DNA from: Alphaproteobacteria bacterium
GTDB lineage: Bacteria > Pseudomonadota > Alphaproteobacteria > MPNO01
Reading direction: 5' to 3'
Assembly: GCA_965242495.1 (NCBI GenBank)
Contig: OZ251446.1
Span: forward strand, 2,751,530-2,815,529
Length of the DNA stretch: 64,000 nucleotides
In this document: positions 17,044 to 38,854 of the stretch, piece by piece
How positions within the stretch are numbered: the stretch's first letter is position 1
How the letters are laid out: the number at the start of each line of letters is the position of its first letter
Notes under the pieces: model-generated
Told to the model about the DNA's origin: nothing
Seen by the model: the letters and a program-made list of their open reading frames with translations, nothing else
Databases searched by the model: none
Position numbers and translations under genes: made by a program

Positions 17044-17120
17044 CGCGCGGCCCGACCGCGCCGGTCTGGAAACGGGGGAGGGGCGGCCGCGCGGCCGCCC
17101 CTCTATTTTCCGCGCCGACG

Positions 17121-28172: not shown

Positions 28173-31100
28173 ATGTTGTCGTCCACCACCTCCCCCCGGA
28201 ACCTTCGTGACGGAGCGCCGGTCCGAGATGGGCGCGCCTCGCGCCGTTCCGGCCCCGCCGGGTCCGTTTCCGCCGCCCTCGCCCTGGGGTGCGCCGCCGC
28301 GTTGGTTCTCGGCGCGGGAGGGGCGGCGGCCCAGAACCTGTGCGCGGGCGACGTCGTGGCCGACCGCACGTCGATCGTCGTATGCGACCGCGCCGCCGGC
28401 GAGACGAGAGACGTCCACATCAACCTCCGCAACCCCGACATCGCGCTGACGGGCTTCAACGAGTCCCCCGTCACCGCCGACACCTACGGCGTGGGGAGCG
28501 TCACCATCGAGGTGACGGGCGGCTCCCTGTCGTCCTCGGGCAACTGGGCGAAAGGCATCCGCAGCTGGAGCAACGGCGGAAGCGGCGACGTCGCCGTCAC
28601 GGTGAAGGACGTCGACATCACGACGGCCAACGACAACGGCAACGCCGTATACGTCCGTCGCCAGGCCGGGACCGGCGACATCAAGATCGACGTGTCGGGC
28701 GGCGTCCTCACGACGACGGGAGGAGGCGTCAGCCAGGGCATCACCGGCTGGGCGCAGGTCGCGGGCGACATCGATATCGACGCGAAGGACGTCGTCATGA
28801 GGACGGAGGGAGCCAACTCCCTCGGCATCTTCGGCTATCAACAGGGTCCAACGGGAGACGTCGACGTCGCCGTTCAGGGCGGCTCCATCGAGACGAACGG
28901 CTTCCTCGCCCACGGCGTCTATAGCGGGAAAATCGGCGGGACCGGAAACGCCGGCTTGAGCGTGTCGGGCGCCTCCGTCACGACCCGGGGCCGATTCACC
29001 CGCGCCGTCAACGGCGTCTCATCGGGCGAGGGCGACGTCACGGTCGACGTATCGGGCGAAGCCGTCGTCGTGGCGGAAGGCGAGGGCAGCGTCGGCGTCT
29101 ATCTGCTTCACGTCGGCAACGGCTCCGGCCATGCGACGATCGGCGCCGCGGCGCGGACCGCGGCGCCCTTCGGCAACGGCGTCTACGGCCGGCTGATGCC
29201 CTCCGCGAACGCGGCGGGGCGCATCGTCATCGACGCGCGGGGCCGGATCGAGGCCCGGAACGCGGGCGTTCTCGCCTGGGCCGAGCCCCGGAGCGGCTCC
29301 ACCTTCGGAGAAGGAAACGAGGCCGCGGACGAGACGGCCGGAACCGCGCCCATGATTCACGTCGCCTCCAGCGACGACGTCACGGTCGGCGAGGGCGTGA
29401 TGGACGCTTATGTCCGCGCGGCGGTCGCGGGCGACGACGGGACGCTTCAGGCGGGCGAGCAGGCCGTCCTCGACGCCATCGAGGGAGACGATTCGGACGC
29501 GCTGGACACGGCGCTGGGCGCGCTTCCCGATGATTACGACGACGCCTGGAAGGCGCGCATGCGGGCCTTCCGGGTCGGGCGCGGCGCGGAGCGGACGGAT
29601 CACCATGGCTCCCAGGGAAACGCTCCGGGGGCCAACGCCAGACTGGCGGAGGAGGCGGCGGTCGAGATTCTGGACATCCCCCGGGCGGGTATCCGCGCCA
29701 TGGCGCTTTCCCACACCGAGATAGCGGATTACGTCCGGCGCGGCGGCTTCGGCGGGTCGCTCTCGGACGACGAGCGGACGGTGCTGGCGGCCGTCCTGAC
29801 GGGCCGCGGCCTGGAGGCGGCGCTCGCCGCGCTTCCCGCCGACTATACCGACTCCTGGAAGGACGGCGTCCGGCTGCGCGCCATGAGCTACAACGCCGGC
29901 GACATCCAGGTGGACGTCGCCGGAGGGACGATCACCGCTGACGGCGACGGCGTTCACGCGCGCTACGTCGTCGCGCACGACCGCAACGGCGCCATCGCCG
30001 TGACCGTGGCCGAGGGCGCGAGCGTCGCCGGCGGGCGCCACGGCGTCTTCGTCGGCGGGGCGGGCCTGGACGACGACGGCCTGCGCGCCCATACGGTGAC
30101 GGTGAACGGCGCGGTCATGGGCGGGACCGGCGCGGGCGTCTATCTGGACGGCTGCGGAACGGTGACGATCGGCGAGAACGGGCGCGTGAGCGCGGCCTCG
30201 GGCGTCGGCATCCTCTCCGACGGCGCGGGCGACTTCTACGCGACGGTGGCCGGCGCGGTGGAGGGCGACGTCCGCAGGACGGGCGGCGGCGACATGAGCG
30301 CGACCGTCTCGGGCGCGGTGGAGGGCGACCTTCTCGTCCAGGGCGGCGGCGATTTGAGCGCGACGGTGTTGGGCATGGTGAAGGGCGACCTCCGCGCGAT
30401 GGACGGCGGCGCCCTGACGGTGGACGTGATGGAAGGCGGCGTGGTGACGGGAACGGTCCACGATCCCGTCGGCCCGCTGACGGTGCGCGGCGGCGTCGGG
30501 CGGCTTCTCTACGGCAACGGCGCGACGGTCACGGTGGCCAGGACGGGCCGGCTCACCGGCGTCGAGGGCGAGGCGCTCCGCAGCGCGGCCGGAGACCTGG
30601 ACGTGACCGTGGCGGGGACGGTCGCCGGCGACCTCCGCGCCCCGACCGGCGGCGCGTTGACGCTGGACGTGCAGGAAGGCGGCGCCGTCGCCGGAACCGT
30701 CCACGATCCCGTCGGCCCGCTGACGGTGCGCGGCAGCGTCGGGCGGCTGCTCTACGGCAACGGCGCGACGGTCACGGTGGCCGCCACCGGCAGGCTCACC
30801 GGCGTCGAGGTCGAGGGCCGGCGCGAGGCGCTCCGCAGCGAAGCCGGAGACCTGACCCTGACCGTGGCCGGGATGGTCGCCGGCGACGTCGTCGGGGAGG
30901 GCGACGGCGACTTGCGCGCGACGATCTCGGGCATGATCGCCGGCGACGTTTTCGGCCGCGGCGCGGGCGAACACGTCGTCACGGTGGCTGCGGGCGGGGC
31001 GGTGACGGGCGTCATCCATCTGGCTGCCAGCGCGGTGAGGGTGGACGGCGCGGCCGGGCGCGTACAGTTCGACCGGGGCGGCGCGGTGACGGTCGGCGGG

Positions 31101-32516
31101 ACCGGCCGGATCACGGGCGTCGACGGGGTTGCGGTCCGCAACGCCGCCGGCGAGCTGAGCGTAACGGTGGCGGCCGGCGGCAGGATCGACGGGGACGTCG
31201 TCGATTCGGGCAGCCGTCCCGCGATGGTCTCGACCGGGGCCGGGAGCGCGGTCCAGGGGATCGACGTGGCCGGAGCGGGCAGCGAGCTGCGGATCGGCGG
31301 TACCGCGGAGCGGGCGCGCCTCCGCCGGGGCGGGACGGTGACGGTGGGGCCGGACGGCTCGGTCGGCCCGGTATCGAGCGACCGCGGGGAGTTGGAGGCG
31401 GTGGCCAGACAGGGCGCGGGGGAGACGCAGGCGGAGGCGCTGCAACGGGCCTTTCGGGGCGAGGTGGACGAAGCCGGGGGCGCGCCGACCATACAGACGC
31501 AGAAGGAGGGCGAGCCCCCGCGGACGGTGGGGCCGCCCGGTACCGGGGCCGCGGCGCCCGACGGCGCCTTCGACGTGGGCGTCGAGACCACCGGAGGGGG
31601 CGGCGTGCGGATCGTGCCGAGGTACGCGCCGCGTTCGCGCGTGTACGAGGCGCTGCCGTCGGCGCTGCTGGGGTTGAACGATCTGCCGACGCATCGCGAT
31701 CGTCTGTCGGCGCTGCGTTCGTCGAACGGGATCTGGGCGCGCGTGGAGGCGGAGGGCGGCGAGCGCCGGGCGAAGCGTTCGACGTCCGCGGCCGCCCTCT
31801 CCTACGACCATCGCCGTTACGGCGTGCGGACCGGCGTGGACGTTCCGTTGGGGTCGTCCGGCATGGCGGGCGTCTCGGCGCATCGCCTGCGCGGGTCCGC
31901 GGAACTGTCGGGGAAGGACGGCGAGATCGAGGCGTCCGGTACGGGCTTCGGCGTGTCGGGCGCATGGCGGTTCCCGGACGGCGTCTACGTCGACGGGCAG
32001 GCGCAGGCGACGTGGTACGAGGCGGACGTGAAGTCGGGGCCGCGCGGGGTGCTGAAGTCCGGGGCCAGGGGCTTCGGCTACGCGCTTGGGCTGGAGGCGG
32101 GCCGCCGGCTGGCCCTGGGCGTGGTGACGCTGACGCCGCGCGCGCGTCTGGCGCGTTCGCAGCTGCGGCTGAACGACTTCACCGACGCCCTGGGCGGTCG
32201 GGTGTCGCTGGAGAAGGGGCGCAGCGTGACCGGTCGCGCGGGGCTGCGCGTCGAGGCCGCGCCGTCGGGCCCCGGCGGCGGTCGGCTGTTCGCTTCGGCG
32301 GAGGTGGAGCGGGAGTTTGTGGCCGAGACGCGGATGCGCGTGTCGGGCGAAGGGCTGTCCTCGGAGCGCGACGCGACCCGGGCGCGTCTGGCCCTGGGCG
32401 GTTCGCATGAATGGGGCGAGGGCCGCTACGCCGTGCAAGGCGCGGCAAGCTACGCCGCCGGCCGCCGCGGCAACCGCAGCTACGGCGGCGCGCTGAACCT
32501 GAAGCTGCGGTTCTGA
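28173..32516 (+). CDS. Large autotransporter 1
   Basis: Signal-like AAAQ; Gly/Val/Thr beta-helix repeats; YAPRSRVYEALP linker; barrel ending YGGALNLKLRF. Confidence 0.88.
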   Translation: MLSSTTSPRNLRDGAPVRDGRASRRSGPAGSVSAALALGCAAALVLGAGGAAAQNLCAGDVVADRTSIVVCDRAAGETRDVHINLRNPDIALTGFNESPVTADTYGVGSVTIEVTGGSLSSSGNWAKGIRSWSNGGSGDVAVTVKDVDITTANDNGNAVYVRRQAGTGDIKIDVSGGVLTTTGGGVSQGITGWAQVAGDIDIDAKDVVMRTEGANSLGIFGYQQGPTGDVDVAVQGGSIETNGFLAHGVYSGKIGGTGNAGLSVSGASVTTRGRFTRAVNGVSSGEGDVTVDVSGEAVVVAEGEGSVGVYLLHVGNGSGHATIGAAARTAAPFGNGVYGRLMPSANAAGRIVIDARGRIEARNAGVLAWAEPRSGSTFGEGNEAADETAGTAPMIHVASSDDVTVGEGVMDAYVRAAVAGDDGTLQAGEQAVLDAIEGDDSDALDTALGALPDDYDDAWKARMRAFRVGRGAERTDHHGSQGNAPGANARLAEEAAVEILDIPRAGIRAMALSHTEIADYVRRGGFGGSLSDDERTVLAAVLTGRGLEAALAALPADYTDSWKDGVRLRAMSYNAGDIQVDVAGGTITADGDGVHARYVVAHDRNGAIAVTVAEGASVAGGRHGVFVGGAGLDDDGLRAHTVTVNGAVMGGTGAGVYLDGCGTVTIGENGRVSAASGVGILSDGAGDFYATVAGAVEGDVRRTGGGDMSATVSGAVEGDLLVQGGGDLSATVLGMVKGDLRAMDGGALTVDVMEGGVVTGTVHDPVGPLTVRGGVGRLLYGNGATVTVARTGRLTGVEGEALRSAAGDLDVTVAGTVAGDLRAPTGGALTLDVQEGGAVAGTVHDPVGPLTVRGSVGRLLYGNGATVTVAATGRLTGVEVEGRREALRSEAGDLTLTVAGMVAGDVVGEGDGDLRATISGMIAGDVFGRGAGEHVVTVAAGGAVTGVIHLAASAVRVDGAAGRVQFDRGGAVTVGGTGRITGVDGVAVRNAAGELSVTVAAGGRIDGDVVDSGSRPAMVSTGAGSAVQGIDVAGAGSELRIGGTAERARLRRGGTVTVGPDGSVGPVSSDRGELEAVARQGAGETQAEALQRAFRGEVDEAGGAPTIQTQKEGEPPRTVGPPGTGAAAPDGAFDVGVETTGGGGVRIVPRYAPRSRVYEALPSALLGLNDLPTHRDRLSALRSSNGIWARVEAEGGERRAKRSTSAAALSYDHRRYGVRTGVDVPLGSSGMAGVSAHRLRGSAELSGKDGEIEASGTGFGVSGAWRFPDGVYVDGQAQATWYEADVKSGPRGVLKSGARGFGYALGLEAGRRLALGVVTLTPRARLARSQLRLNDFTDALGGRVSLEKGRSVTGRAGLRVEAAPSGPGGGRLFASAEVEREFVAETRMRVSGEGLSSERDATRARLALGGSHEWGEGRYAVQGAASYAAGRRGNRSYGGALNLKLRF

Positions 32517-32613
32517 GCGCAATCCACGGCGGGAAGGCGCCGCCCCTCGGGCGCGCCCGCCTCGCCCGACGCCCGCCCCCGGCCCCACGGAAACGGGATA
32601 CGGGATACGAATA

Positions 32614-32640: not shown

Positions 32641-32723
32641 AGGGGGGGGGGGGGCGGGACACTGGTCCCGGGAAGGCCATTGGCTCGAGGCGGATACGCC
32701 AACCATCCGTCATTCCCGCGAAA

Positions 32724-32874
32724 GAGTGTGTGAAGAAATCCCAAGACATCCGCGTAATTCGGAATTTTCGCCGTGTCGATAGAAACATAAATGGTCTATA
32801 TGAGGAACATATATGGGTCAAATGTGGTGAATCGACTGGATAGACCACAGGTCTTGGGGTTTCTTCACACACTC
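32724..32874. mobile_element. 151-bp MITE, copy 1 (IS1182-type TIRs)
   Basis: 24-bp TIR GAGTGTGTGAAGAAATCCCAAGAC / GTCTTGGGGTTTCTTCACACACTC (1 mismatch); GAAA duplicated at 32720-32723 and 32875-32878; AT-rich core. Confidence 0.85.
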
Positions 32875-33029
32875 GAAAGCGGGAATCCATGGCGGGGGAG
32901 GACGGGTCCTCGGGCGCGCCCGCCTCGCCCGACGGCTTCCCCCGGCCCGTCGTCACAGGCCCCCCCCCTCCCCACGGAAACGGGAATCCAGGAGCCTCGA
33001 CGATACCGCAAGCAGGCCGCATTTTCCGC

Positions 33030-33057
33030 TTGACAGACGGAATTTCTGTTCCATCTT
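33030..33057 (+). promoter_or_regulatory. Putative sigma70 promoter of the NYN leader
   Basis: TTGACA-N16-CATCTT. Confidence 0.5.
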
Positions 33058-33097
33058 CCCCCCAAGGCAGATACCCGCTGGCAGCGTGCTGTCGGCT

Positions 33098-33132
33098 CAA
33101 GGGCCGCTCCCCGGAGCGGCCCTTGCTTTTTT
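33098..33132 (+). terminator. Intrinsic terminator just upstream of the NYN start codon
   Basis: CAAGGGCCGCTCC-CC-GGAGCGGCCCTTG then CTTTTTT; SD GAGGA and ATG follow within 12 nt. Confidence 0.75.
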
Positions 33133-33143
33133 CGAGGACGACC

Positions 33144-33914
33144 ATGAGAACGAGAGTCTATGTCGACGGCTTCAACCTGTACTACGGAGCGCTCAAGGGA
33201 ACGCCCTTCAAGTGGCTGAATCCTGTCGATCTGGCGCGCCGGGCGCTGCCGGCGGGATACGTCGTGGATAAGCTGCTTTACTTCACCGCCCATGTATCCG
33301 GCGTTTCGGACCCGGGCGCGCCGGCCCGCCAGCATGCCTACCTCACCGCGCTCCGCACGCTGCCGGAGGTGGAAGTGCATTTCGGGAGCTTTCTCGCCAA
33401 GACGGTCTGGCGTCCGCTCGTCAACCTGCCGGTGGCTGGCCGGCGGATCGACGCGCCGCGGCCGGTGACGTTGCCCGCGGGCGATCACCCGGTCGTCGGG
33501 TCGCGGATGCAGACGCTGCCCGTGGGCCGCTACCCCGAACGCGGCGCGGGAAGGAAGAAGCGACGCAAGGCGTCGGCCCCGCTGCCGGACGCATTGGTCG
33601 CGGAGTTTCACGCCATGGAGGAGAAAGGCTCCGACGTGAATCTTGCGGCCCATCTCCTGAACGACGCCTGGAGCGATTTGTTCGAGGCGGCGGCCGTCAT
33701 CTCGAACGATACCGATCTTGTGACTCCGATCCGCATGGTGACCGCCGAGCGGAGGAAGCAGGTCATCATCGTGTGTCCAGGGCGATGGCAGGTCGCGCCG
33801 AAGCTGCGCGCCGCGGCGAGCCATGCGCGCCATATTCGCCCCGCGATGCTGAGAGGGGCGCAGTTTCCCGACACGCTGCCGGGCGCTGCGGTCTCGAAGC
33901 CGACGGGCTGGTAA
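33144..33914 (+). CDS. NYN (LabA/DUF88, PIN-like) domain ribonuclease
   Basis: VYVDGFNLYYG, EEKGSDVNLA, VISNDTDL acidic motifs. Confidence 0.88.
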   Translation: MRTRVYVDGFNLYYGALKGTPFKWLNPVDLARRALPAGYVVDKLLYFTAHVSGVSDPGAPARQHAYLTALRTLPEVEVHFGSFLAKTVWRPLVNLPVAGRRIDAPRPVTLPAGDHPVVGSRMQTLPVGRYPERGAGRKKRRKASAPLPDALVAEFHAMEEKGSDVNLAAHLLNDAWSDLFEAAAVISNDTDLVTPIRMVTAERRKQVIIVCPGRWQVAPKLRAAASHARHIRPAMLRGAQFPDTLPGAAVSKPTGW

Positions 33915-34043
33915 GTGCGCGCGCCAAACCATTGAGCCTGCGACGGCGGCAAGGAAAGCGGGAATCCATGGCGGGGAAGGGCGGGTCCTCGGGCGTATCC
34001 GCCGACCGACGGCCTCCCCCGGTCCCTCGTCCCCACCGAAAAC

Positions 34044-34071
34044 TTGACGGGGGGGGGGGGGGGGTTATGCT
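34044..34071 (+). promoter_or_regulatory. Autotransporter 2 promoter with G16 spacer tract
   Basis: TTGAC-G16-T-TATGCT; 16-bp spacer. Confidence 0.65.
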
Positions 34072-38621: not shown

Positions 38622-38772
38622 GAGTGTGTGAAGAAATCCCAATACATCCGCGTAATTCGGGATTTTCGCCATGTCGATAGGAACACAAATGATCTATATA
38701 AGGAACGTATGTGGGTCAAATGTAGTGAATCGACTGGATAGACCACAGGTCTTGGGGTTTCTTCACACACTC
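38622..38772. mobile_element. 151-bp MITE, copy 2
   Basis: Same length, near-identical TIRs and GAAA duplication (38618-38621, 38773-38776) inside GTCATTCCCGC...GCGGGAATCCA. Confidence 0.85.
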
Positions 38773-38854
38773 GAAAGCGGGAATCCATGGCGGGAGAGGG
38801 CGGGTCCCCGGGCGTATCCGTCGGCCGACGGCCTCCCTCGTCTCCACGGAAAAC

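Follow-up and report, generated by a model that had tools for sequence, protein, structure and literature searches.

A predicted structured leader RNA conserved upstream of NYN nuclease genes in mobile bacterial modules

The leader and its downstream nuclease gene

The window analyzed here, a 64,000-nucleotide stretch of alphaproteobacterial DNA, carries on its forward strand an intact gene for a NYN nuclease of 256 aa (33144..33914), which is preceded by a short putative RNA gene with an intrinsic terminator. The predicted leader comprises 64 nt (33069-33132) and starts with a single-stranded 5' flank of the YACCC type, AGAUACCC (33069..33076), at which conservation with related loci begins. 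The flank is followed by a hairpin, P1 (33077..33096), whose eight base pairs, two of them G-U, join positions 33077-33084 to positions 33089-33096 around a CGUG loop, and then by the terminator stem, P2 (33098..33125), with 12 base pairs, nine of them G-C, and the 4-nt loop CCCG. A C residue and a U6 tract (33126..33132) close the intrinsic terminator and mark the predicted 3' end of an RNA of about 64 nt. The first-pass annotation had suspected an imperfect hairpin in the leader, which proved to be real, and a 13-bp GC-rich inverted repeat followed by T6, of which the GC-rich stem and the T6 tract hold up and the stem shrinks to 12 bp. The leader fold, calculated for 111 nt, has a predicted energy of -45.5 kcal/mol (z = -3.48) that was equalled by none of 200 shuffled sequences, and both the MFE and the centroid structure consist of two independent hairpins.

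The U-tract ends 11 nt upstream of the NYN start codon, and the intervening spacer (33133..33143) holds the Shine-Dalgarno motif GAGGA (33134-33138). The ribosome-binding site, ATG and intact reading frame described earlier are thus all present, with the ATG at 33144 rather than 33145. Because an 11-nt spacer is too short to accommodate a second promoter, the nuclease gene would be transcribed only by polymerases that read through the terminator. Upstream of the leader, a candidate promoter (33030..33057) combines a perfect -35 element, TTGACA (33030-33035), with a 16-nt spacer and a weak -10 element, CATCTT (33052-33057). The promoter-like site proposed previously is therefore sound in its -35 half; its -10 element matches at only three of six positions, the site was not called in a promoter scan of the window region, and the stretch shows no homology to promoters at related loci. 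As judged from the sequence, transcription probably starts at or just before position 33069, and it is here that homology to four relatives (G040, G009, G008 and G012) sets in abruptly. At the other end of the module, homology to G040, a 93%-identical relative, stops about 20 nt past the stop codon.

The module is bracketed by two forward-strand direct repeats of about 65 nt, one on its left (32884..32948; family D1) and one on its right (33963..34027; D1, D3), the latter just upstream of the promoter of the next autotransporter gene. A further copy of the same repeat (32521-32585) lies 3' of the upstream autotransporter gene, whose reading frame ends at 32516, 582 nt short of the terminator and in agreement with the distance of about 580 bp given before. 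The leader itself is present once in its own genome. An apparent match between P1 and the complementary strand of a conserved 16S rRNA stretch was inexact and was dropped.

The protein matches the Pfam NYN profile (PF01936) just above the cutoff and in its C-terminal half only (25.7 bits vs a cutoff of 24.2; E 1.8e-5), finds no match among the NCBIfam models and is recognized far more clearly by the PADLOC profile of the defence candidate HEC-09 (PDLC04163; 125.8 bits, E 4.1e-37), in two stretches split by an insertion. Eight relatives, plasmid and phage forms included, match the same profile with E-values of 3.7e-27 to 1.5e-54. The window protein belongs to subfamily A of HEC-09, which shares with the described candidate, a Hma-embedded, NYN/MARF1-like protein, its family, its single-gene format and the conserved aspartates, and differs from it by an extra basic insertion of about 50 aa, modelled with low confidence and spanning roughly residues 92-150. 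An AlphaFold2 model (pLDDT 84.3, pTM 0.74) gives the protein a NYN/PIN-like fold, and its top Foldseek matches in the PDB, each with a probability of 1.00, are 2qip (E 1.5e-5) and the MARF1 NYN domains 5yaa and 6fdl. All 65 aligned family members share the residues D8, D164, D174, D189 and D191, and on sequence and model the nuclease looks active. The aspartates of HEC-09 are equated with MARF1 D358/D426/D452 in the preprint that describes this candidate (bioRxiv 10.1101/2024.01.29.577857). A stand-alone bacterial NYN protein is described as a Mn-dependent, sequence-nonspecific ssRNase (PMC11346440).

Conservation and covariation of the leader

A covariance model built from seed leaders, R1, locates the leader 5' of NYN relatives in many phyla. 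It matches all 77 genome loci with at least 100 nt of upstream sequence, 72 of which were themselves seed members, and in 76 of them the match lies in sense orientation just upstream of the gene. On viral contigs, none of which had been used in model building, a leader was recovered at 41 of 59 loci, and a Leptospira plasmid locus scored 30.3 bits; among three further plasmid loci, two (L109 and L110) gave strong matches and one (L108) reached 12.3 bits only. A search of 61 whole genomes of relatives returned 13 matches of at least 50 bits, 12 of which coincide with a NYN gene or pseudogene, the remaining one marking a place from which the NYN gene has disappeared. A second match within the window (17051-17109; 17.4 bits, E 0.057) is weak and was taken as chance. 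The homologue on a Rhizobium plasmid has no leader, its gene overlapping an upstream ORF instead.

The first-pass annotation had proposed a search for covarying structure upstream of NYN homologues, and this search turned out positive, with leader and terminator kept across phyla and covariation in both helices. Across 87 leaders, 88.7% of the cells in paired columns can pair, compared with 74.7% after shuffling and 33-54% in slid controls; 19 of the 20 base pairs have changed on both sides, with 238 double-change cells vs 65 in the shuffled set. In 30 leaders outside the seed, the corresponding values are 86.1% vs 64.2% for pairing and 130 vs 44 for double changes. Both-side changes affect seven of the eight P1 pairs, in the full set as well as in the 30 independent leaders, and all 12 pairs of P2 (87 leaders). 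By this comparative evidence, the leader is a conserved structured RNA.

Within the module, conservation is strongest in the RNA part. In subfamily A, to which the window belongs (n=20), identity amounts to 85% in the leader, 74% at codon positions 1+2 and 41% at position 3, and falls to 36% in the 45 nt upstream and 37% in the 64 nt downstream; in subfamily B (n=17), the leader reaches 87%, codon positions 1+2 83% and position 3 51%, with 44% upstream and 37% downstream. P1 is the most invariant part, most of its columns showing at least 90% identity in subfamily A. Judged by these identities, the leader RNA is under tighter constraint than the NYN protein.

The order of promoter, leader, terminator, Shine-Dalgarno motif and ATG is common to the window and its relatives, in which the terminator mostly lies 17-24 nt from the start codon. 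The six nucleotides that precede P1 have ACCC at their 3' end in 58 of 87 leaders, the loop of P1 reads CGUG in 44, and P2 has a mean predicted energy of -21.3 kcal/mol; at least four U residues occur within the seven positions after P2 in 73 leaders, leaving 14 with a weak U-tract. A promoter of the form TTGnnn-N16-18-TAnnnT stands directly upstream of 52 of the 87 leaders, compared with one of 87 when a control position 200 nt farther out is scanned instead; the window belongs to the 35 leaders without it. The relatives' alignments that we inspected contain no conserved start codon for a leader peptide, and the complementarity of the 5' flank to the Shine-Dalgarno region is, on inspection, not kept between the window and its relatives. 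P1 falls into discrete sequence types that follow the protein clade in a quick, unfinished tree, in which a switch of the loop from CGUG to UUCG appears to be a single event. Adjacency alone explains such clade-matched leader types, and we draw no inference from them on co-evolution of leader and protein.

Tandem repeats, which the first-pass annotation had noted to be lacking in comparison with ToxIN, are indeed absent from the single-unit leader of the window and nevertheless occur in its family. Seventeen ColE1-type plasmids from E. coli, Salmonella and Klebsiella carry a promoter, four to five tandem P1 units of 29-33 nt joined by A-rich linkers, and then a terminator ahead of the NYN gene, and one viral contig has two full leaders in tandem. 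Analysis of 147 upstream regions with TRF found arrays in one lineage only, most loci being single-unit. Extra copies of promoter plus leader with no NYN gene behind them occur at three loci; one such copy has kept P2 by two compensatory changes, and one sits before an integrase gene.

Mobile contexts and comparison with known systems

Relatives of the nuclease number at least 557 among species-representative genomes, together with 157 plasmid records, some of them of carriers of only 3.4-4.6 kb, and 59 loci on viral contigs; a phage collection gave one, partial, protein match. Plasmids, prophages and genomic islands in numerous bacterial phyla carry the pair of RNA and nuclease, with near-identical copies across phyla. 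When 2745 ORFs from 85 loci were clustered all-vs-all, no conserved protein partner emerged, in keeping with the earlier statement that no protein antitoxin is adjacent: the clusters comprise the NYN protein and overlapping shadow frames, and the next real cluster consists of integrases, at five loci. Integrases, a transposase and HipA are neighbours at some loci, and in one viral contig (L184) the module is inserted between the prohead protease and major capsid genes. These contexts are mobile and of the conflict type. Among 80 genome loci, eight ORFs fall outside the range of 190-275 aa taken to denote an intact NYN protein (six truncated, two over-long) and two more have no detected start; at seven of the 13 leader-bearing places in relatives, the NYN ORF is broken or missing. 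We did not count broken ORFs as a sign of toxicity, because the ORF presents a 12-fold larger mutational target and many of the records are MAGs.

No family in Rfam 15 reaches its gathering score on the window leader, and in the loci of 35 relatives only tRNA and RNAI do so. The best match, the Bradyrhizobiaceae sRNA BjrC68 (RF02353), resembles the leader in having two hairpins, the second of which is a terminator, and its match, though weak (19.5 bits vs a gathering score of 39), covers exactly 33069-33132, as that of no other family does; however, its P1 contains a 16-nt insert and has no sequence in common with the window leader, and the loci of 20 relatives contain no BjrC68 match at gathering. 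We consider BjrC68, like istR, 6C and STnc320, a sub-threshold similarity that reflects generic hairpin or terminator likeness only. The pairing of leader and NYN gene had been put forward as undescribed, which agrees with Rfam 15 and with the literature searched, in which we found no description of it. The protein family is already a named defence candidate, and the accessible part of the HEC-09 preprint describes the protein and makes no mention of a leader RNA (bioRxiv 10.1101/2024.01.29.577857). The Mn-dependent ssRNA-cleaving enzyme of Bacteroides fragilis, also a NYN protein that stands alone in a defence setting, differs in that it is encoded in a type III CRISPR locus, where it is proposed to trim crRNA intermediates (PMC11346440).

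The closest parallels in layout are type III toxin-antitoxin systems. Like ToxIN, CptIN and TenpIN, the module lines up one promoter, an RNA gene, a Rho-independent terminator and an endoribonuclease gene in a single unit with the RNA first; it has no protein antitoxin and is carried by plasmids and other mobile elements. This arrangement leads to an excess of RNA over enzyme in ToxIN-type systems, and such an excess is predicted for the window module as well. Type III systems are further marked by tandem RNA repeats and a ToxN/AbiQ-fold toxin, neither of which is found in the window. The ColE1-plasmid relatives do carry repeats (of about 30 nt), whereas the window and most relatives have a single unit in which the terminator hairpin forms part of the conserved RNA, and the window nuclease has a NYN/PIN-like fold. 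To our knowledge, the toxins of described type III systems share the ToxN/AbiQ fold rather than that of NYN proteins.

Structured elements in nuclease transcripts also serve autoregulation: the RNases encoded by rne and rnc of E. coli, as well as Regnase-1, limit their own synthesis via a structured element in their own transcript. The leader resembles these elements in being open to recognition by the enzyme encoded downstream, whereas they are not known to have a promoter-proximal terminator that releases an sRNA, arrays or separate promoter-plus-leader genes. In the pR'-tR' unit of phage lambda, which gives rise to the 6S RNA, a strong promoter and a nearby terminator produce a short RNA, and expression of the downstream genes requires read-through. 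The window module shares with this unit, and with phage morons, the close succession of promoter and terminator and, in L184, the insertion into a phage structural operon. It differs from them in that no linked antiterminator or Q-binding element was seen, in that the module is found mostly outside phages, and in that P1 is conserved together with the nuclease.

Possible roles of the leader RNA

We lean, at a confidence that falls somewhat short of even, towards a type III-like module in which an abundant terminated RNA restrains an RNase whose synthesis is limited by read-through. Such a module would be a self-contained mobile unit of two parts, a small structured RNA gene and a NYN gene arranged head-to-tail behind one promoter. 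Transcription would start a few bases 5' of 33069, and most polymerases would halt at P2 and the U6 tract, freeing an RNA of about 64 nt with the YACCC flank, P1 and P2; a minority would read through to yield the NYN mRNA, leaving the leader RNA in large excess over the enzyme. The RNA, chiefly through P1 and its flank, may then bind the nuclease, or be bound and cut by it, and so render it harmless. A drop in transcription or a shift in the ratio of the two components, caused by loss of the plasmid or island, phage-induced shut-off or read-through of the terminator, could free the nuclease, which would cut RNA and arrest growth. The working principle proposed is that of type III toxin-antitoxin and abortive-infection systems, with a different nuclease fold. 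We infer each element of this scheme: the short transcript, its recognition, inhibition or processing by the nuclease, and the toxicity of the latter.

The sequence comparisons favour this type III-like reading insofar as P1 is the most invariant part although a plain terminator does not need it, and the obligatory read-through layout, the linkage of leader and gene, the covariation, the lack of a conserved neighbouring protein, the ToxIN-like arrays, the NYN-less leader copies, the mobile contexts and the active look of the nuclease point in the same direction. Against it stand the single unit at most loci, the NYN fold in place of that of ToxN/AbiQ, the weak or uncertain promoter in the window, the weak U-tracts of some leaders and the leaderless Rhizobium homologue, as well as a negative phage screen: according to the preprint, none of the coliphages tried was countered by a HEC-09 representative that had been cloned together with its putative native promoter region (bioRxiv 10.1101/2024.01.29.577857).

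The listed features of the module also fit a regulatory leader that acts in cis only and is recognized by the nuclease. In this main rival explanation, which we regard as a serious possibility though a rather unlikely one, the leader attenuates transcription and so holds a potentially harmful nuclease to very low levels, while the short RNA arises as a side product that does nothing in trans. P1 would be where the NYN protein, or else some host factor, contacts or cleaves the 5' UTR of the nuclease's own transcript in a feedback loop. The position of the element within a 5' UTR that transcription must cross speaks for it, as do the prevalence of single-unit leaders and the outcome of the HEC-09 screen just cited. 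However, P2 and the U-tract would suffice for attenuation, and conservation is nevertheless highest in P1 and its flank; no alternative antiterminator pairing was seen on inspecting the fold, and arrays of four to five P1 units and separate promoter-plus-leader copies are hard to account for on a purely cis-acting basis. A gate for antitermination, as in morons, appears quite improbable. Here, the terminator would silence the NYN gene until polymerase becomes terminator-resistant, for instance through a phage Q- or N-type factor, with P1 as the loading or recognition site of that factor. A strong promoter followed by a strong terminator within about 65 nt suits this idea, as do the viral-contig loci and the position of the module in L184, which antiterminated late transcription would cross; against it, the module is spread over many phyla and is carried by tiny ColE1 plasmids and by chromosomal islands with no linked antiterminator gene, the P1 types travel with the NYN gene rather than with the host or phage lineage, and the repeat arrays are given no role.

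More doubtful again, and in our view very unlikely, is that the conserved segment acts as DNA, in the form of an operator or a recombination or attachment site, or encodes an independent host-regulating sRNA, the NYN gene being merely co-inherited. P1 is indeed a near-palindrome just past the promoter, a frequent place of operators, and integrases lie near five of 85 loci and behind one orphan leader. Nevertheless, it is RNA pairing, and not the dyad symmetry of DNA, that the G-U pairs and compensatory changes maintain, all but one of the strong matches in the relatives' genomes coincide with NYN genes or their remnants, and discrete leader types within one architecture argue against a single shared host target. 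There remains the notion of a chance or generic terminator that happens to precede the gene, with which the terminator scan of the 1.8-kb region would agree, its two hits against 1.5 expected being no more than chance predicts. Conservation across phyla, covariation and the independent recovery of leaders by R1 refute this notion and leave it a negligible probability; since the element is conserved and covaries across homologues, it lies far beyond chance.

If the RNA is indeed the partner of the nuclease, as in the favoured type III-like reading, RNA-controlled toxin modules of this kind would make up a large new family whose nuclease fold is not known from type III systems, the lack of a phenotype for the NYN protein tested in isolation could be explained, and a structured RNA of about 60 nt would be added to the catalogue. 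It is tempting to go further and to speculate, although we hold this to be unlikely, that the terminator itself is the sensor of a ratio-based trap in which the hairpin RNA keeps a nonspecific NYN RNase in check. A polymerase that ignores the terminator, or a halt in leader synthesis, would then tip the ratio of RNA to enzyme and release the nuclease, in response to phage antitermination of the Q/N type, a takeover of transcription in the host or loss of the plasmid. Were this so, HEC-09 and its leader would represent a very widespread new class of RNA-antitoxin systems for abortive infection and addiction, found across many phyla, on ColE1 plasmids as well as in prophage structural operons, with a nuclease fold unlike that of any known type III system. 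Should the leader be merely cis-regulatory, it still constitutes a deeply conserved, covarying RNA motif that is missing from Rfam 15. The tiny E. coli plasmids with their RNA array of four to five units offer a ready model. In existing annotation, the relatives appear as lone genes for a "NYN domain-containing protein" or are mis-annotated, and start-codon annotations that extend over the repeat array are put right by the leader.

Anatomy and conservation of the leader RNA

In the window, an intact NYN ORF of 256 amino acids (ATG at 33144, set by homology; stop codon at 33912-33914) is preceded by a leader consisting of the 5' flank AGAUACCC (33069-33076), the 8-bp hairpin P1, with two G-U pairs and a CGUG loop (33077-33084 paired with 33089-33096), a single unpaired base and the 12-bp hairpin P2, with nine G-C pairs and a CCCG loop (33098-33125). 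P2 was picked up by the terminator scan and is followed by a C and a T6 tract ending at 33132, with an 11-nt spacer containing GAGGA between the T-tract and the NYN start. The order of elements described in the first-pass annotation, a hairpin, a GC-rich terminator and a Shine-Dalgarno sequence ahead of an intact NYN gene, is thus borne out by sequence reading, terminator scan and folding, with the 111-nt leader reaching -45.5 kcal/mol (z = -3.48) and none of 200 shuffled sequences folding as well. Likewise, no upstream gene accounts for the terminator, as the upstream autotransporter ORF already ends at 32516 in the ORF list. The proposed promoter held up only in part: TTGACA (33030-33035) is present as a -35-like sequence, but the promoter scan of the window did not call the site, because its best -10 sequence has only 3/6 matches. 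BLAST and R1, our covariance model of the leader, detected a single leader copy in the 3.96-Mb genome.

The NYN protein is patchily distributed, with matches at E <= 0.001 in 14 of 61 relatives' genomes (genome G000 of this set counted), including one copy from a different family that is 93% identical to that of the window. When five upstream regions were aligned, near-invariance started abruptly at the 5' flank and lasted through the U-tract, with one double compensatory change in P2. The four other loci have clear TTGnnn-N17-TAnAnT promoters ending ~7 nt upstream, to which the window's sequence 5' of the leader is unrelated. In a distant 207-aa subfamily, the leader sequence is wholly different and the architecture the same. 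A scan of species-representative genomes yielded at least 557 relatives among 591 candidates, and the best 80 of these share the leader plan across Pseudomonadota, Acidobacteriota, Gemmatimonadota, Nitrospirota, Chloroflexota, Bacteroidota, Verrucomicrobiota and others. Of the 87 leaders compared, 44 have CGUG as their P1 loop and 24 have UUCGA; the CGUG-loop type of P1 is shared by two protein clades that are only ~40% identical. The six positions 5' of P1 end in ACCC in 58/87, P2 has a mean energy of -21.3 kcal/mol and is followed by at least four U within seven positions in 73/87, and a promoter-like pattern lies directly 5' of the leader in 52/87, as opposed to 1/87 at a control position. 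Leader and terminator are therefore conserved among homologs.

The leader RNA is more constrained than the protein. In the window's subfamily A (n=20) and the other leader/protein subfamily B (n=17), mean pairwise identity is 85% and 87% for the leader, compared with 63% and 74% for the protein, 74% and 83% for codon positions 1+2, 41% and 51% for codon position 3, 36% and 44% for the 45 nt upstream, 47% and 53% for the terminator-to-start spacer, and 37% in both for the 64 nt downstream. Most P1 and junction columns are at least 90% invariant, and the top of P2 is variable. Judged from these alignments, the constraint on the leader RNA exceeds what a terminator would need.

Covariation and independent recovery of the leader

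R1 comprises 65 positions and 20 base pairs and was built from the window and 72 loci, leaving out five loci with a displaced or masked leader (L054, L060, L071, L087 and L090) and three with too short an upstream sequence. It matched all 77 loci with at least 100 nt upstream, most of them seed loci, 76 in sense just 5' of the gene and one (L087) on the opposite strand, and regained the five displaced or masked loci. Across 87 matches (E <= 1e-5), 88.7% of cells were paired (74.7% after shuffling; 33-54% in slid controls), 19/20 base pairs changed on both sides, and double-change cells numbered 238 versus 65 after shuffling. Four P1 pairs contain 21-30 unpaired cells, because subfamily B has a bulge that shifts the register in R1. 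Thirty matches from 29 non-seed viral and plasmid loci, whose alignments are fitted to R1 and hence biased towards the structure, a bias addressed by the slid and shuffled controls, gave 86.1% paired cells (64.2% shuffled), 130 double-change cells (44 shuffled) and a covariation score of 0.572 (0.220 shuffled). Covarying structure 5' of NYN homologs, which had been suggested as a check, is thus present in both sets.

Applied to the whole genomes of the 61 relatives, R1 returned 13 matches of at least 50 bits in 12 genomes, 12 of them at NYN genes or remnants and the remaining one, in genome G015, a leader whose NYN gene has gone; six more matches were weak (25-29 bits). Among 59 viral-contig loci with NYN relatives of 24-41% identity, 41 had a sense match just upstream, four had opposite-strand matches only, and 14, including L173, which lacks upstream sequence, had no match at E <= 0.01. 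On plasmids, R1 scored 59 bits in Phaeobacter and 41 bits in Granulicella, and relatives from Leptospira, Xanthomonas, P. syringae, Thiothrix, Shinella and a 3.5-kb E. coli plasmid follow the flank-P1-terminator plan with sequences of their own. A Mycobacterium plasmid relative has a hairpin without a U-run, and a Rhizobium homolog lacks the leader, its gene abutting the upstream ORF. At this Rhizobium plasmid locus (L116:986-2193), the abutting ORF encodes a 170-aa hypothetical protein and a restriction endonuclease gene adjoins; it may represent a variant in which a protein partner replaces the RNA. The locus on a 3461-bp E. coli plasmid (L108:760-917; R1 score only 12.3 bits) apparently has two different P1-like hairpins in series, followed by P2 without a U-run, and the sole other annotated gene on the plasmid encodes a VbhA-family antitoxin.

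The nuclease and the possible role of its leader

The window protein scores barely above the Pfam NYN threshold (25.7 versus 24.2 bits), matches the PADLOC family HEC-09 with E = 4.1e-37 and returned nothing in an NCBIfam search. Its AlphaFold2 model, based on 65 family sequences (pLDDT 84.3), has 2qip and MARF1 NYN domains as top PDB matches (probability 1.00), and five aspartates (D8, D164, D174, D189 and D191) do not vary across the aligned 65 sequences. A basic, Arg/Lys/Pro-rich insertion of ~50 aa in subfamily A (window 33420-33593, residues ~92-150), modeled with low confidence (pLDDT around 50) and missing from the 207-aa forms, could be an added RNA-binding loop. HEC-09 is described as an NYN/MARF1-like candidate inside Hma defense systems that gave no protection against the phages tried, with RNA unmentioned in the accessible part of that preprint (bioRxiv 10.1101/2024.01.29.577857). 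A CRISPR-associated stand-alone NYN protein is an Mn-dependent, sequence-nonspecific ssRNase (PMC11346440).

Because NYN expression is forced through a strong terminator, the short RNA is predicted to greatly outnumber the mRNA. From comparative sequence data, our preferred, if tentative, reading is that the leader is a putative RNA antitoxin of the NYN nuclease. Alternatively, it may act solely in cis, as an attenuator or autoregulatory leader, which we consider possible but less likely; the stronger constraint on P1 than on the enzyme, the absence of a protein partner, the multiplication of the RNA unit in one lineage and its retention at a few loci as a gene of its own all point beyond a mere brake, to the RNA as the nuclease's partner. 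Consistent with the claim that no protein antitoxin is adjacent, clustering of 2745 ORFs from 85 loci revealed no conserved neighbor gene. Gating of NYN by antitermination appears improbable, and the little probability left falls to other roles of the leader.

The multiplied unit occurs on NZ_CP122630.1, a 4568-bp E. coli ColE1-type plasmid, where a promoter, four tandem units with A-rich linkers between them and a terminator precede an NYN gene starting with TTG at L114:1501. Each unit (period 29-33 nt) comprises a C-rich flank and a 7-bp hairpin with a CGUG loop (CGAG in the third unit), and the 173-nt array region folds with z = -6.55. The array is found on 17 plasmids of E. coli, Salmonella and Klebsiella, with five units on NZ_OW968114.1; TRF detected none outside this enterobacterial plasmid lineage in 147 upstream regions. 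Viral contig L147 carries a tandem pair of full leaders that have diverged from each other, and the proteins of the array and tandem-leader loci are HEC-09 members (PADLOC). Separate copies, with promoter and leader and no following NYN gene, occur at three loci (L048, L053 and L064), the duplicated unit beginning ~25-45 nt 5' of the leader. The flanks of the duplicates diverge within a few bases 3' of the P2 stem in L048 and L064 and only after the U-run in L053, whose orphan copy preserves P2 by two compensatory changes.

Type III toxin-antitoxin/abortive-infection systems are the nearest working analog of the module. It does not belong to the type III families known so far, its toxin having a different fold and its RNA in the window being without repeats. 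The contrast with ToxIN-type loci drawn earlier, an absence of tandem repeats, therefore stands for the window but not for the plasmid relatives with their four- to five-unit arrays. Apart from tRNA and RNAI, no Rfam 15 family reached its gathering score in the window and 35 relatives' loci. Within the accessible full-text literature on NYN proteins, type III systems, RNA antitoxins, anti-phage toxins, structured noncoding RNA and plasmid small RNA, we found no description of an NYN protein paired with a leader RNA, in line with the initial impression that this pairing is not a described system.

Annotation, mobility and genomic setting

Several deposited annotations deserve comment. The NYN CDSs at L114:1324-2148 (NZ_CP122630.1) and L122:135-441 (NZ_OW968114.1) begin 5' of the tandem hairpin array and extend through it, and their starts look mis-called, since the TTG codon of L114 opens the conserved N-terminal sequence MKTIVYVDGFN. 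HEC-09-type NYN proteins on Pseudomonas and Xanthomonas plasmids (L115, from P. syringae plasmid NC_019328.1, and the plasmid matches H55, H60 and H64) are annotated as nicB, 6-hydroxy-3-succinoylpyridine 3-monooxygenase or hydroxylase, which looks like a propagated misannotation of the NYN nuclease. On a Shinella plasmid (L120:1992-2969) and in matches H51 and H54, NYN makes up the N-terminal portion of a 325-aa protein whose annotation includes an Xre/MbcA/ParS antitoxin toxin-binding domain, preceded in Shinella by a long P1 and a terminator; such a protein would combine the nuclease and a toxin-antitoxin-type domain in one chain.

The window and its 93%-identical relative are homologous only from the leader start to ~20 nt beyond the stop codon, and a quick NYN protein tree places near-identical copies across different phyla. 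Homologs occur on 157 PLSDB plasmids, some of just 3.4-4.6 kb, and tRNA genes lie near the module in 3/20 loci. Neighbors include a DDE transposase, HipA, an AAA ATPase and, in five loci, integrases: in L064 (1162-2696), the orphan promoter-plus-leader is followed by ~250 nt, a tyrosine integrase gene, ~230 nt and the NYN-linked leader, and four further loci have integrases next to the module. On viral contig L184 (1995-4246), the module lies between the prohead serine protease and major capsid genes, downstream of the portal gene, a moron-like position within a phage structural operon. Its upstream region is near-identical in seven other viral-contig loci, and its P2 terminator hairpin recurs in two more, L194 and L196.

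In the window, the module is located in a repeat-rich spacer between two large paralogous autotransporter-like ORFs (28173-32516 and 33773/34101-38557), whose translations are nearly identical over ~350 aa at the C-terminus. Direct repeats flank it on both sides, copies of an element otherwise found ahead of autotransporter genes. At 32712-32886 lies a MITE-like element whose terminal inverted repeats (36 nt, 86% complementary) enclose an AT-rich core of 103 nt; near-identical spurious-ORF translations at 32791 and 38671 reveal a second copy (~38650-38800) downstream of the second autotransporter gene. A homopolymer tract between -35 and -10 is a classic layout for slipped-strand phase variation. 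The promoter-like site of the next autotransporter gene (34044-34071; TTGACG, 16-nt spacer, TATGCT) has a ~15-G run in its spacer, and comparable G13 and C9 runs occur within the upstream repeat elements at 32642-32655 and 32960-32968.
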